A DNA stretch of 38,606 nucleotides from a plasmid, in the sequence record NZ_CP102943.1. The stretch is one strand, 5' to 3'. The notes below the pieces were generated by a model. It searched no databases, was not told the DNA's origin, and saw only the letters and a list, made by a program, of their open reading frames with translations. This document shows positions 12,055-37,260 of the stretch, one piece after another. The translations under genes were made by a program, and so were the position numbers. Position 1 is the stretch's first letter; every line of letters starts with the position of its first letter.

Positions 12055-12179
12055 GGTGCCACCGCCGGGCTCTGCCTGCGCGGTCCAAAGCAGTTGGGGA
12101 CGGCTGGCCGCATCGAGCGCGGCCAGCTGTCGCCAAGACAGTTTCAGCGCGCCGATGGCGCCCTACTCGGAGAGAACCC

Positions 12180-14894
12180 ATGTCGGCAGCTGTCGTTGCC
12201 CGCGTGTTGACCGTAATGATGGCCGCCGCTGTCGTGAGCGTAGGAACGCTCTGGCTGGCGGGCTTCTTCTTCTTCCTGCTGTCCAAGGCCGACCCCATCG
12301 GCGCCACCAACCTGGGCACGTGGTGGCTGTACTGGAAGCACTACGGGGACGATCCCGCCGTGAGGGGCCGTCTTCTGGGGGGGCTGGGCATCGCTGCGGG
12401 AGTAACGCTGACGTTCGTCGGTGTGCTGGTGGCGATGGCGTTGCAAAAGCGGATCTCGCTGCACGGCGATGCCCGCTTTGCAACCCAGCAGGAAGTTGCC
12501 AGCGCCGGCTTGTTTGGCGATGCCGGCATCATGATTGGCCGCTGGGGAAAGCGATACCTGATGTTCGGGGGCATGCAGTTCGTACTGCTATGCGCGCCTA
12601 CCCGTTCGGGTAAGGGCGTCAGTGTGGTGATCCCGAACCTGCTGTCCTGGCAGGAATCGTTGGTATGCACGGACGTGAAGCTCGAAAACTTCCTGATTAC
12701 GTCGAAGTTCCGCGCCAAGTACAGCGACGTTTACCTGTTCAACCCCTTCAACCTGACGGACGTTCCCGAGGGCGACCGTCCCAGCCCGATGCGGGGGCGA
12801 TCGCACCGGTATAACCCGCTGGGCTACATCAGCGACGACCCGCGCTTGCGCGTGAGCGATGCACTGGCTATCGGCTACGCCCTGTACCCTGGCGTCGGCA
12901 AGGACGCGTTCTGGGACGATCAGGCGCGGAACCTGTTCATGGGTCTGGTCCTGTACCTCTGCGAAACCCCTTCCCTGCCCCGCACCATGGGTGAACTGCT
13001 CCGGCAGTCGTCGGGTAAAGGGAAGCCGGCGAAAGATCACCTGAATGAGATCATCACCGCGCGCAACTACGTTTCTGTGGCTGACGTGAAGCTTACGTCA
13101 GCCGGTGACGGCACTGAGGAAGCCGCCAAGGCACTCGATAGCGGTTTGGCTGGATACCTTGGTGTGTCCGAAGACGCGGCCCGTGCGCTCTGCGTTGCAT
13201 CCCTGGAAACCGGCGCTTTCATCGCTACTGACGTACCCGAAGCCGACCTAGACAAGCTCGCGGCAGTGCTGAAAGGCTGTGGCGCCGAGGGTGAGGTAGT
13301 TAAGCGGCTTGTCCCGCGCGTATGGGAGGAAAAGATGGGCGGGGAGCCGCCACTGTCGATGGAGTGTGTCGATGCACTGATGCGCTTCATCGCCGCGTCG
13401 GAAAACACCCTTGCCAACATCATGTCTTCATTCAACGCCCCGCTGACTCTGTGGGCCAGCCCGATGATCGATGCCGCCACTTCGGCGAACGACTTCGATC
13501 TGCGGCAGGTCCGCCGGCGCCGGATGACGATCTACATCGGCGTGCCAGCCAATAAGCTGGCCGAGTGCCGCGTCCTGCTCAACCTGTTCTATTCCCAGCT
13601 GGTAACGCTAAACACCGATGCCCTACTCCATTCGTCGCCTGGGCTGAAATACCAATGCCTGTTGCTGAACGATGAGTTCACGGCCCCCGGCCGCATCGCG
13701 GCCATCGACACCGGCAACAGCTTCATGGCCGGTTACGGGCTGCGTCTGGTCACGATCATTCAGGCGCGTTCGCAGCTGCTGGCGGATGCGCCGAAGGGGT
13801 ATGGGAAAGAGGGAGGAACTACCCTGGCCACCAATCATGCGTGCCAGATCTTTTTCACGCCTCGGGAAAAGGATGATGCCAACGAGTATTCGGAAACCCT
13901 GGGCTACTACACGTTTAAGGCGAAGGGTAGCAGTAGGCAGCTGACCGGCCGCACCGGGCGCAGCGAGTCGATCTCCGACCAGCGGCGCGCACTGATGATG
14001 CCGCAGGAACTGCGGGAAATGCCGCAGCGTGAGCAGATCATCACCATGGAGAACACCAAGGCGATCAAGTGCGAAAAGATCGCCTACTACGACGATCCGA
14101 TGTTCCTTGATCGGCTCAAGAGCGTTTCGCCGAGCCTTGCCAGCCTGGGCAAGAAGAAGCCGACGCGCGGGCAGCTGGAAGCTGCGTGGGGTTCAGGCGA
14201 AATGGCCGCGATGATCCCTGTGGTGGATCTGGATGTGCACGAAGCTAAGGTGCAAGACCGTGTGCGCGAAGCCACCGCCGAAGAGGTTGCCGGCGGGATT
14301 CGATTGGAGAGGGTGTATCAGGCCGCCCAACTCGAAGCAAAGTTCGCCAAGGCGGCGAAGCAAGGCGATCCAATTTCGGCTGAGGACGCCGACGCCTTGG
14401 TGACGGAATTCTGGGAGACGCTGGGTGGCTCAGCTGCCAGTGGCGAAGACGACGCCGACGCCGACGCCGACGCCGACGCCGACGCCGACGCCGACGAGTC
14501 TATCTCCGATGAAGAACTGGCAGCGCTCGACGCGGCGATTGCGCAGGAGGACGCGGCGGAAGCCGAAAGCCACGCCGCGCATACGGCGCCAGCGCCGGCG
14601 GTCCTGGCTCCTGTGTCCGGGCCTGCGCTGCCACTGCCCTCCCCCGACGCGGCGCCCGGCGCTATCGACCTCAAGGCCCTGTACGCCTCCGCCGGCAGCG
14701 CCAAGGCGCAGGCTGAGGAAGCCGCCGCAGTAGTAGGGAACGATGACCGCGAGGCCGCTGGGGAGCCTTCCGATGATTACGTGGCCATCTACGGCATGGA
14801 TTCCGACGATGCGCCGCAGTGGGAAGGCGCAGAGGATGAGGCCGAAGAAGCGGAATACCACGGCGAGGAAGAAGACGCACACACCATGGATTGA
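12180..14894 (+). CDS. virD4: VirD4/TraG type IV coupling protein with a long acidic, low-complexity C-terminal tail
   Basis: N-terminal transmembrane region; Walker A PTRSGKGVS; GGAGAG RBS; C-terminal roughly 230 aa rich in D/E/A/P with a (DA)n run. Confidence 0.85.
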   Translation: MSAAVVARVLTVMMAAAVVSVGTLWLAGFFFFLLSKADPIGATNLGTWWLYWKHYGDDPAVRGRLLGGLGIAAGVTLTFVGVLVAMALQKRISLHGDARFATQQEVASAGLFGDAGIMIGRWGKRYLMFGGMQFVLLCAPTRSGKGVSVVIPNLLSWQESLVCTDVKLENFLITSKFRAKYSDVYLFNPFNLTDVPEGDRPSPMRGRSHRYNPLGYISDDPRLRVSDALAIGYALYPGVGKDAFWDDQARNLFMGLVLYLCETPSLPRTMGELLRQSSGKGKPAKDHLNEIITARNYVSVADVKLTSAGDGTEEAAKALDSGLAGYLGVSEDAARALCVASLETGAFIATDVPEADLDKLAAVLKGCGAEGEVVKRLVPRVWEEKMGGEPPLSMECVDALMRFIAASENTLANIMSSFNAPLTLWASPMIDAATSANDFDLRQVRRRRMTIYIGVPANKLAECRVLLNLFYSQLVTLNTDALLHSSPGLKYQCLLLNDEFTAPGRIAAIDTGNSFMAGYGLRLVTIIQARSQLLADAPKGYGKEGGTTLATNHACQIFFTPREKDDANEYSETLGYYTFKAKGSSRQLTGRTGRSESISDQRRALMMPQELREMPQREQIITMENTKAIKCEKIAYYDDPMFLDRLKSVSPSLASLGKKKPTRGQLEAAWGSGEMAAMIPVVDLDVHEAKVQDRVREATAEEVAGGIRLERVYQAAQLEAKFAKAAKQGDPISAEDADALVTEFWETLGGSAASGEDDADADADADADADADESISDEELAALDAAIAQEDAAEAESHAAHTAPAPAVLAPVSGPALPLPSPDAAPGAIDLKALYASAGSAKAQAEEAAAVVGNDDREAAGEPSDDYVAIYGMDSDDAPQWEGAEDEAEEAEYHGEEEDAHTMD
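14449..14493 (+). repeat. Hexanucleotide (GACGCC)n microsatellite inside virD4 encoding (Asp-Ala)n
   Basis: gacgcc repeated 6-7 times; coordinates approximate. Confidence 0.7.
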
Positions 14895-14943
14895 GCAATA
14901 CACATTACAGATTGTGGCGTTCACTGCGCCACATATCTAATTA

Positions 14944-14962
14944 CCAATATGTGTATTATTGG
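14944..14962. promoter_or_regulatory. 19-bp operator-like motif copy c (CCAATATGTGTATTATTGG)
   Basis: Inverted repeat CCAATA/TATTGG, 72 bp upstream of the gene at 15034. A hairpin GTGGCGttcactgCGCCAC at about 14915-14933 sits just after the virD4 stop. Confidence 0.5.
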
Positions 14963-35691: not shown

Positions 35692-35736
35692 GCGGATCTC
35701 CGAAAGGGGCCGCGCGGTGAACGCGGCCCGGTTAGA

Positions 35737-36423
35737 TCAGTCTTCGTTTTCGTGGGTGATCGTGATGACCGGCTCCCACTGGTCACCGCCGCTGATGCGC
35801 AGGACCAACGACGCGGTGCGGCTCGTCGGGCCTGTGCGGGCAATGCGGTTGATCTGGAAGGGGCGGGGTGCGCTGTTGTTCTCGCGACGCTGGCGGGCGA
35901 TAGCCGCTGCGCAGCGAAGCAGACGCTCAAGCCGCAGGGCTTGGGTGTCCCACTGGCCGGTGCGGTCGGTGTCGCTTTGGCCCCATTCGATGCAGTCGAA
36001 CCACACCGAACGGGTGACAGCGACCGGGATGCGGAAGCCGGCACTCCGGGCGGCGACGCTCACATCCACCAGCACACCATCTTCAATGGCGTCTGCACGG
36101 GTGTAGCTGTCGATCAGGTCAGCTGCACTGAACAGCGGCTCGTTGTCGGCTTCGCGCGCATGAGCCTGCGCGTCCAACCACGAACCTCTCCACGCGTCGA
36201 GTAGGGCCACCACACTCGCACCAGGACATTGCACGTCCGCGCCGCGCTCGGGATCGAACAGGAAGCTACGGAAAGCCTCATCACAGACGGGGATCAGTGG
36301 GAGCCCGGCCTGATAAGCCGCAGCCCCAAGATGCTTGGCATGGGTCAGCTGCTTTGCTTTGCCCATTGCTTTGCTAGATGTCTTCGCCGGCTCTTGCTGT
36401 TGGCTGTTGTCGTAGTGGTTCAT
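35737..36423 (-). CDS. Hypothetical protein
   Basis: 228 aa from MNHYDNSQQ with GGAGAAAG RBS. The longer listed ORF (to 36594) has a low-complexity N-terminal extension and is probably not translated. Confidence 0.5.
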   Translation of the reverse strand: MNHYDNSQQQEPAKTSSKAMGKAKQLTHAKHLGAAAYQAGLPLIPVCDEAFRSFLFDPERGADVQCPGASVVALLDAWRGSWLDAQAHAREADNEPLFSAADLIDSYTRADAIEDGVLVDVSVAARSAGFRIPVAVTRSVWFDCIEWGQSDTDRTGQWDTQALRLERLLRCAAAIARQRRENNSAPRPFQINRIARTGPTSRTASLVLRISGGDQWEPVITITHENED

Positions 36424-37260
36424 GGTGACTTTCTCCGTGCTTCCTGTTGCGTGGTGAACATTGCTTCGCTGAGTGCCTTGCGCCGTATTGCCCGTAGGTC
36501 GGGCGGGACGGGCTGGGTGTGATGTGCAAGACAGGAAGCCGCAGCCGCGCCGCAGGCGTGGACCGGGTGAGTGGATTGAGCGCTTGCGCGTCACTTCGCA
36601 CCCAGCCCGGCTTGCCCTACCTTTAAGGGCAGGCGTAAGGCACTCGGCGAGTGTTCAGGTACGCGGTAGGGCGGAGAGGGTCACCGGAACCGAAATGCAG
36701 CAGCGACAGCTGCTGCCAGTGACGGCTTGCCGGCACCATCTGCGCCCGTAGGGCGCGCAATAGCGGGGTTGCCTGGGCCGTTGAAATCACGGCCGCGTCG
36801 CGGTCGGCGCTGTTGAATGGGGGGTGGGTAGTGGTGACAGGCCTGCGGCTGGCCAGGGGGCGTCGTGTCACCAAGACAGATTCAGCGTGAAGTGACCCGC
36901 TGTGGCGACATGTCTCGCAGCGGGCAGGGTGGGGGTGTCATCAGTCGGCGCCAGGAAGCCTTACGCCGTGCCGCCGGCGATGGCCTTAACGGCGTTCATA
37001 AATTGGTGACGGGGAACGTGGTTAAGCGGTAGAATCGGTCGCCAATATTGGCTCTGTCGGCTGCTGCCGTTGGTCCGTTTTGCGTCAGGGAGTTCGACGC
37101 AAGACGTGCCCAGCTTTACCGAAAGGGATTGAAGCCCGTAGGGCCGAAACCGGCAGATGCCGGGTTCGGTTCACGAAAGCCCGGCCCCGCCGGTAGGCGG
37201 GGAGAGCCAGCATATCGAGCGTTGCGAAGGTCTGGATGCCGTAACAACCAAGTTCATCTA

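Follow-up and report, generated by a model that had tools for sequence, protein, structure and literature searches.

Why should a conjugative plasmid gather five copies of one short direct repeat in front of a transfer-gene promoter, 7 kb from its origin of replication? The DNA considered here, called the window throughout, is the whole 38,606-nucleotide stretch of the plasmid record NZ_CP102943.1, and the element in question is a 16-bp direct repeat dispersed over it, with a five-copy array at 17.7-18.15 kb. An earlier note, made from the letters alone, had singled out this repeat and proposed that the array might be an origin of replication or incompatibility determinant separated from the initiator gene, or else a ParB/KfrA-type centromere. 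On comparison with published sequences we regard it as close to certain that the 16-mer is the PromA-family iteron and, as such, a presumed binding site of the initiator RepA. That, among the copies outside the origin (here termed satellites), the array acts as an auxiliary RepA-binding locus for copy control and incompatibility is a reading that we hold to be reasonably probable.

The dispersed repeat itself is real. Across the whole window the motif CAAGACAnnTTCAGCG occurs in eight exact and four one-mismatch copies, every one on the + strand. The exact copies (CAAGACANNTTCAGCG) start at 12134, 17736, 17860, 17882, 18005, 18129, 26162 and 36872, and the one-mismatch copies at 24871, 24895, 24974 and 23792; the number of exact copies expected by chance is 0.00, as none appeared in any of 100 dinucleotide-preserving shuffles. 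The coordinates listed in the earlier note were correct to within the 5-nt offset of a 25-mer, and a single copy, 23792 inside incC, was missing from that list. A weight matrix trained on 28 oriV iterons from seven other PromA replicons, with the window excluded from the training set, recovers these 12 sites together with a weak match at 19791 on the - strand, and all 13 score above the best of 30 shuffles. Apart from 23792 and 19791, every copy is intergenic. The matrix scores were:

17882, + strand, extra iteron of the array: 33.3 bits
26162, + strand, iteron 3' of repA: 32.1 bits
24974, + strand, oriV iteron: 30.6 bits
36872, + strand, iteron of a single composite module: 29.3 bits
17736, 17860, 18005 and 18129, + strand, composite array copies: 22.9-23.1 bits
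12134, + strand, iteron of a single composite module: 22.1 bits
24895, + strand, oriV iteron: 18.8 bits
24871, + strand, oriV iteron: 18.4 bits
23792, + strand, iteron within incC: 16.0 bits
19791, - strand, weak match: 13.7 bits
Best of 30 shuffles: 12.3 bits

The identity of the repeat follows from the PromA literature, in which the putative iterons of all PromA plasmids are given as 17-bp repeats, 5'-CGCTGAAacTGTCTTGC-3', numbering three in subgroup alpha, four in beta and gamma and five in delta (PMC9499019). The 16-mer is the reverse complement of this published iteron, that reverse complement reading GCAAGACAgtTTCAGCG, and the earlier suggestion of an iteron-type repeat is therefore borne out. 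The protein presumed to bind it is encoded as follows:

26658-27749, - strand: repA, the initiator gene (Pfam RepA_C)

The product shares 78% identity with RepA of pMRAD02, 68% with that of pSB102 and 64% with that of pIPO2, and 91% with a metagenomic RepA. Searches against the PDB by sequence or profile gave no match to RepA, and fold comparison alone was informative: the structure model has a dual winged-helix fold (mean predicted local distance difference test score (pLDDT) 66, moderate confidence), and its best matches are RctB and R6K pi, with pPS10 RepA and RepE also found and the pi structure being one bound to an iteron. The model suggests that RepA is an initiator of the iteron-binding type and thus the putative binder of the 16-mer. 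The likeness to R6K pi, with its distant alpha and beta origins, and to Vibrio cholerae RctB, with its 12-mers, 39-mers and remote crtS, is one of fold. Unlike in those systems, there is no sign here of looping, of a second origin or of a distinct regulatory site class; satellite and origin sites differ slightly (TTCAGCG versus ATCAGCG).

It could be argued that the repeats are not RepA sites at all and that KorB, KfrA or some other protein of partition or regulation uses them as a centromere or operator. Genes for KorB, IncC, KorA and KfrA are present on the plasmid, binding of the motif by RepA is only putative, and the dispersed intergenic copies are somewhat like the KorB operators of IncP-1 plasmids, of which there are 12 dispersed sites; here, too, about a dozen copies of a short motif lie in intergenic regions of a conjugative backbone, some beside promoters. 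However, ParB/KorB-type helix-turn-helix proteins bind palindromes, and the IncP-1 KorB sites are indeed palindromes bound by a ParB-family protein, whereas the motif here is a direct repeat without palindromic symmetry, and it is the same as the tandem repeats in the mapped origin region, a region that suffices, with repA, for replication. No IncP-type KorB operator was found in the window. We consider this explanation extremely improbable, and the ParB/KfrA centromere proposed at the outset finds no support in a non-palindromic motif that is the same as the origin iterons, alongside a RepA with an iteron-initiator fold.

Whether the array is itself an origin depends on where the PromA origin lies in this plasmid, and the relevant features are:

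24738-25020, + strand: oriV, comprising an AT-richer tract, three iterons and three DnaA-like boxes
24871-24886, 24895-24910 and 24974-24989, + strand: the oriV iterons
24738-24746, 24919-24927 and 24988-24996: the oriV DnaA-like boxes

The segment 24720-25050 can be aligned with the DNA preceding ssb in pMRAD02, a Xanthomonas plasmid, pIPO2T, pTer331 and pSN1104-11, and the alignment spans the AT-rich tract (CAACTACAGG...TATAGG), the iterons and the DnaA-like boxes. Clusters of three to five copies of the motif occur upstream of ssb in these five plasmids and in pSN0729-62, pYK0413-01 and pSB102. The PromA oriV has been placed upstream of ssb (PMC6232296, PMC9499019, PMC4290620), and mini-plasmids of only repA and oriV replicate, with mini-replicons available for subgroups beta, gamma and delta (PMC9499019 and its supplement). 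Because it aligns with five PromA oriVs and contains the sole cluster of DnaA-like boxes in the window (24738, 24919 and 24988), the small cluster at about 24.74-25.02 kb is, on this alignment, the origin. The match to the described PromA oriV (pMOL98, pSN1104-11, pSN0729-62 and others; PMC9499019, PMC4290620, PMC6232296) extends to the same 16/17-nt sequence, to the layout at 24.87-24.99 kb (a pair of iterons at a distance of 24 nt, then a DnaA-like box and a third iteron that abuts TGGATAAC), to a position adjoining the korA-incC-korB operon and apart from repA, and to a copy number of three, which is that of subgroup alpha. The separation of rep from oriV, for which RK2 had been offered as an analogy, is accordingly true of the PromA family. 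The same three papers describe origin copies of the iteron only and not dispersed ones.

This origin differs from those described in two respects. The first is that ssb has no place between korA and oriV: no ssb gene is found there (window 24432-24740), and the gene is present at that position in pMRAD02, pIPO2, pTer331, pSB102, pSN1104-11 and pSN0729-62. The second is a variant sequence, CAAGACAACATCAGCG, in two of the three origin iterons; it is shared with L036, a relative with 79% nucleotide identity. The variant is identical in that relative though the flanks have diverged, so these low-scoring origin iterons are, by this comparison, a maintained lineage variant rather than a product of decay. 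The satellites keep the family consensus ..TTCAGCG, and origin and satellite sites form two slightly different classes in this lineage. As a separate observation, GATTC is present in those iterons whose two variable positions read GA, namely all five array copies and 36872, and in none of the three origin iterons. GANTC is the target of the CcrM methylase of Alphaproteobacteria, and its match in satellite iterons may be coincidence.

With the origin placed elsewhere, the proposal that the array is a second or even the main origin becomes very unlikely. It is true that the array has five consensus-quality iterons, one pair of them at the origin-typical spacing of 22 bp, and that two of the three oriV iterons (18-19 bits) score below every array copy. 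Nevertheless, no DnaA-like box was found between 17.3 and 18.7 kb and no AT-rich tract in the array, whose GC content does not drop below 47% over any 40 nt; a single copy takes its place in the nearest relatives; elsewhere in the plasmid the homologous oriV is intact, with its lower-scoring iterons conserved exactly in L036; and repA plus the oriV upstream of ssb is enough for PromA mini-replicons. The origin function that the earlier note had entertained for the array was therefore not borne out. Its other suggestion, an incompatibility determinant, is a reasonable one and in essence the interpretation favoured here.

How the array is built bears on how it might have come about, and its parts and neighbours are:

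17665-17696, + strand: Rho-independent terminator closing the virD4-LPD7 operon, made of a GC stem with TTCTTCGTTT after it; the array comes directly next
17697-18144, + strand: five-iteron array, made of four composite modules and one extra iteron
17697-17737 (unit) and 17736-17751 (iteron), + strand: module A
17821-17861 (unit) and 17860-17875 (iteron), + strand: module B
17882-17897, + strand: extra iteron, a perfect 22-bp tandem duplication lying 22 nt beyond the module B iteron
17966-18006 (unit) and 18005-18020 (iteron), + strand: module A'
18090-18130 (unit) and 18129-18144 (iteron), + strand: module B'
18168-18186, + strand: operator-like palindrome CCAAGACGTATAATCTTGG containing TATAAT (18177-18182), in the promoter region of the OmpA-like/TrbM operon
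18217-18732, + strand: OmpA-like lipoprotein gene, a traP/traQ homologue and the first gene 3' of the array (Pfam OmpA; tblastn to PromA homologues, with the start taken from alignments)

Each composite module consists of a 41-bp inverted-repeat unit, TGGYGAC-N27-GTCRCCA, whose final two bases are the first two of the iteron. In most copies the repeated sequence accordingly extends beyond 16 or 25 nt. The start-to-start spacings of the five iterons are 124, 22, 123 and 124 nt, and the array as a whole is a 269-bp duplication with halves that are 91% identical, each half containing two sub-units of 124 and 123 nt. The earlier description therefore needs amending: its duplicated unit of about 150 bp was wrong, the actual structure being the 269-bp duplication with its sub-units plus the 22-bp tandem duplication, and its 124-bp spacing holds for three of the steps (124, 123 and 124 nt) and fails for the one of only 22 nt. 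The accompanying view that the sites fall on one face of the DNA is approximate, 124 nt being about 11.8 turns, and is not a claim that sequence can sustain. Comparison of units A and B reveals 96% identity over the right arm, iteron and flank, falling to 48% in the unit spacer and 28% in the 62-nt tail. Since A and B have only the 58-nt composite in common and are unrelated elsewhere, the array would have been assembled in at least three steps, each adding an iteron, with only the composite apparently maintained in its units.

PLSDB contains no homologue of the entire array, and the only part of the array that matches other plasmids there is the extra 22-bp-spaced pair, which matches the tandem iterons of PromA oriVs. 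No closer relative with the array was found in PLSDB (megablast, blastn and tblastn) or among GTDB genomes, where the best RepA is 72% identical. A scan of metagenomes for the unit-iteron junction gave 16 matches, of which only L020, L021 and L030 are plasmid-like. The other 13, all freshwater metagenome contigs (L017-L019, L022-L029, L031 and L032), were rejected as relatives: they carry only a chance 21-mer, GTCGCCAAGACAGATTCAGCG, inside an AT-rich coding region, without 42-bp units and without PromA genes. The plasmid-like L021 shares 73% amino-acid identity with the window in LPD7, 77% in OmpA and 86% in TrbM. The other of the two closest relatives, L036, is a metagenomic contig from a Logan assembly located via a protein database, with a RepA that is 91% identical and about 79% nucleotide identity across 8.2 kb. 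Both L021 and L036 have the same simple layout of a terminator, one unit with one iteron, 32 nt and then TATAAT within a palindrome, and compared with L036 the window has a 370-bp insertion between 17754 and 18124. These two relatives indicate that the array is a lineage-specific build-up, by internal amplification of one composite module. In the same intergenic region pIPO2, pTer331 and pSN1104-11 have three or four separate 42-bp units followed by one iteron in the same orientation, and in other PromA plasmids this site holds one upstream copy and one inverted copy, with no iteron cluster conserved.

Such a history raises the possibility that the array is a neutral by-product of unequal recombination between modules, kept by its recency or by gene conversion. 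The 269-bp halves are still 91% and the 22-bp duplicate 100% identical, no collection searched has the array in any other plasmid, and repeat-rich intergenic regions are typical of PromA plasmids (PMC4290620). Against this stand the resemblance of A and B in the 58-nt composite only, with at least three steps that each added an iteron, and the conservation of the single seed site across the PromA family. We judge neutrality to be improbable, if less so than an origin function.

Satellites are not peculiar to this plasmid. In each of nine other complete PromA plasmids examined, covering subgroups alpha to delta, there are 5-11 iterons outside oriV, and these recur at particular places: within incC, towards the 3' end of the relaxase gene, ahead of the OmpA-like gene, in inverted orientation just past the traO stop, and 3' of repA or in the trbA/resolvase region. 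The satellites of the window that lie outside the array are:

12095-12135 (unit) and 12134-12149 (iteron), + strand: single composite module between virB11 and virD4
23792-23807, + strand, antisense to the gene: iteron with one mismatch within incC (parA; gene 23231-24034, - strand)
26101-26141 (unit) and 26162-26177 (iteron), + strand: unit followed 20 nt on by an iteron, about 480 nt past the 3' end of repA
36832-36873 (unit) and 36872-36887 (iteron), + strand: single composite module in non-coding DNA upstream of the trbA-like and virB1 genes

The first of these lies beyond the virB11 stop at 12054 and before the true start of virD4, the ATG at 12180. The iteron at 26162 has orthologues in L036 (at 2374) and L037 (at 2740), and in pMRAD02 and the Xanthomonas plasmid an iteron is also found just 3' of repA; other PromA plasmids have an iteron in the region corresponding to 36.8 kb.

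In each of the nine plasmids compared, the copy inside incC overlies the A-(E/D)-F-V-L codons, and no other 16-nt stretch of the gene varies so little at the nucleotide level (14 of 16 positions invariant). In a codon alignment, three of the four codons for invariant residues under the iteron are a single codon in all nine plasmids (GCT, GTC and TTG), compared with 8% of 118 elsewhere in the gene. GCT and TTG would be unusual codon choices in GC-rich genes. The pattern points to DNA-level, synonymous-site constraint within a partition gene. A corresponding synonymous-site analysis of the relaxase gene found that the weak match of the window, at 19791, does not lie at orthologous codons.

Upstream of the OmpA-like gene it is distance that is conserved. 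The last array iteron ends 32 nt before TATAAT, and in eight of ten PromA-type replicons an iteron lies 30-32 nt from a TATAAT-in-palindrome at this place, with a spacer whose sequence is unconserved. Together, the fixed promoter distance, the incC codon constraint and the confinement of high identity in array units A and B to the right arm, iteron and flank suggest selection on the satellite sites. The placement also invites a mainly transcriptional interpretation, in which RepA, sitting between about -60 and -45 of the OmpA-like/TrbM promoter and also next to other operons, would couple the level of the initiator to transfer genes, with the array strengthening or sharpening control of the promoter. 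That the distance is kept from alpha to delta while the spacer is not speaks for this, as does the poor -35 region, where a simple consensus scan of the array found no sigma-70 promoter and which is compatible with dependence on an activator; copies 12134 and 36872 also precede operons. However, conserved sites also lie away from promoters (in incC, past the traO stop and 3' of repA), in pMRAD02 and the Xanthomonas plasmid the promoter and operator persist without a promoter-proximal copy, and four of the five array copies are 150-450 nt upstream of the promoter. A predominantly transcriptional role thus appears unlikely to us but should be taken as a serious second possibility, and it and copy control are not mutually exclusive.

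For the auxiliary RepA-binding locus that we favour, the following mechanism can be envisaged. RepA would occupy both the origin and the satellite iterons, and the array would soak up RepA and pair with the origin (handcuffing); sequestration and handcuffing would lower copy number and exert incompatibility, and RepA on the promoter-proximal iteron could also influence the adjacent transfer-gene promoter. The array would not be needed for replication, the satellites being presumably dispensable because PromA mini-replicons hold only repA and oriV. By the comparison with relatives, it has grown stepwise into five consensus-quality iterons from a seed site that lies immediately 5' of the -35 region at the OmpA-like/TrbM promoter. 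Auxiliary iteron loci for copy control are known from incA of P1, incC of F and the extra iterons of RK2. Like them, the array consists of iterons of origin consensus lying outside the minimal origin, and it likewise is dispensable by inference and has at least as many iterons as the origin. The auxiliary arrays of those plasmids differ from it in adjoining the origin and in their spacing of about 22 nt: here the array is 7 kb away, at a transfer-gene promoter, with spacings of mostly about 124 nt and its iterons fused to a 41-bp inverted-repeat unit.

Several points weigh against this interpretation and temper the confidence that can be placed in it. Binding of the iterons by RepA is termed putative in the recent PromA literature too. 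For four of the five array iterons the interval is about 124 nt, in place of the 22 nt typical of auxiliary arrays, and the iterons of composite modules have a C in place of the usual G just 5' of the core, with a lower matrix score. No iteron half-sites were found upstream of repA, where classic autoregulation through iterons is not evident. The strict distance from the promoter would fit a mainly transcriptional role equally well, and the array could be a young and nearly neutral amplification, given how alike its halves still are. Taking these together, our assessment of a copy-control role for the array in particular is close to an even call.

A broader version of the idea can also be considered, in which the sites would form a backbone-wide RepA network at the origin, the OmpA-like/TrbM promoter, incC and gene ends that ties together replication, partition and transfer, with the consensus array serving as a decoy for RepA made by competing PromA plasmids, which it would titrate. 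Under this scheme the origin would use the variant ACATCAGCG while the satellites keep the consensus, often fused in fixed register to the 42-bp site of a second protein, and incompatibility would serve as a weapon. We regard this as doubtful, a little more so than the transcriptional role. What appears to be new in the present analysis is the occurrence of satellites at fixed backbone positions and this array, neither of which is in the recent PromA literature, though older papers might mention them. The motif and the PromA oriV were already known, and older papers might list the 42-bp units as 'long direct repeats'.

The units to which most satellites are joined deserve attention in their own right. 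Across PromA plasmids the unit is a 42-bp element, TTGGYGACA-N26-TGTCRCCAA, which is 41 bp long in most window copies, and each plasmid carries 9-23 of them, clustered in intergenic regions (L001-L005, L033-L035); the centre is frequently CTGGCCAG, CCGGCGCCGG or GCGATCGA. In the window they are found as follows:

12095, 17697, 17821, 17966, 18090, 26101, 36832 and 37004: starts of the eight units, each 41-42 bp

Six of the eight are fused to iterons in one fixed register. A comparison of 85 units, drawn from five plasmids, showed no variation in the arms TTGGYGACA and TGTCRCCAA or in the length of the spacer, and only about 25% of the interior is complementary, which is near random. We rejected a hairpin (a terminator, single-strand initiation site or RNA element), as only the outer 7-8 nt are complementary, and no Rfam family reached its gathering score anywhere in the window. 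An interior that is not self-complementary, combined with a fixed spacer length, gives the unit the appearance of a double-stranded protein site, and it is probably a candidate binding site of this kind for a second plasmid protein.

A second palindrome family, CCAAGAT-N5-ATCTTGG, occurs at 2418, 8005, 18170, 25918, 32954, 35056 and 37262, often with a -10-like TATAAT or TACCAT. Its copies precede virB2, virB7/8, the OmpA-like gene, parD, the trbA-like open reading frame and other genes, and the copy at the promoter of the OmpA-like gene is kept in all PromA plasmids examined. These palindromes are probably the operator set of one repressor of transfer and maintenance operons. The stretch from the 26162 iteron to the 3' end of repA contains, at 26353-26600, a 132-bp tandem repeat (1.8 copies, 95-96% identical) with the inverted pair CCACATATCCAC / GTGGGTATGTGG in each copy. 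Elements homologous to about 80 bp of this repeat stand next to clusters of 42-bp units in the Xanthomonas plasmid, pMRAD02 and pSN1104-11, and L036 has a parDE pair between repA and the iteron, at the place of this repeat. On the other side of repA, directly upstream of it, is a small open reading frame:

27803-28018, - strand: 71-aa open reading frame

The corresponding reading frame of L036 and L037 gives a weak ribbon-helix-helix (RHH_10) match, and it may be a candidate regulator of repA, fitting a repA promoter region without iteron half-sites.

The window as a whole is probably a complete circular 38.6-kb conjugative plasmid of the PromA family, since the SLT gene, with its end at 38605, and the topoisomerase gene, with its start at 10, are neighbours in PromA plasmids. 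Annotation with Pfam gives a backbone gene order that matches pMRAD02, pIPO2, pTer331 and pSN1104-11:

5' part: topoisomerase, virB2-virB11, virD4, a KfrB-like gene and an LPD7 (TraO-like) gene, then the array
3' of the array: the OmpA-like gene, then TrbM
Opposite strand, after TrbM: relaxase, MobC/NikA, DUF192, KorB, IncC and a KorA homologue
After the korA homologue: an AT-richer gap and small open reading frames, then RepA (- strand)
Beyond repA: KfrA, resolvase, a YadA-like protein, ParDE, DUF6573, the trbA-like open reading frame and the SLT/virB1 gene
29942-32866, - strand: adhesin-like accessory gene (974 aa)

The last of these encodes eight YadA-stalk repeats and a T7 tail-fibre-like segment, and its DNA has a 153-nt periodicity; a comparable position in pMRAD02 is occupied by a haemagglutinin-domain protein with 78-nt repeats.

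PromA plasmids, which are abundant vehicles of broad host range, have received little study as regards copy control and incompatibility. Initiator sites distributed plasmid-wide offer a testable handle on both, and the array fragment is a candidate incompatibility tool against the whole PromA family.

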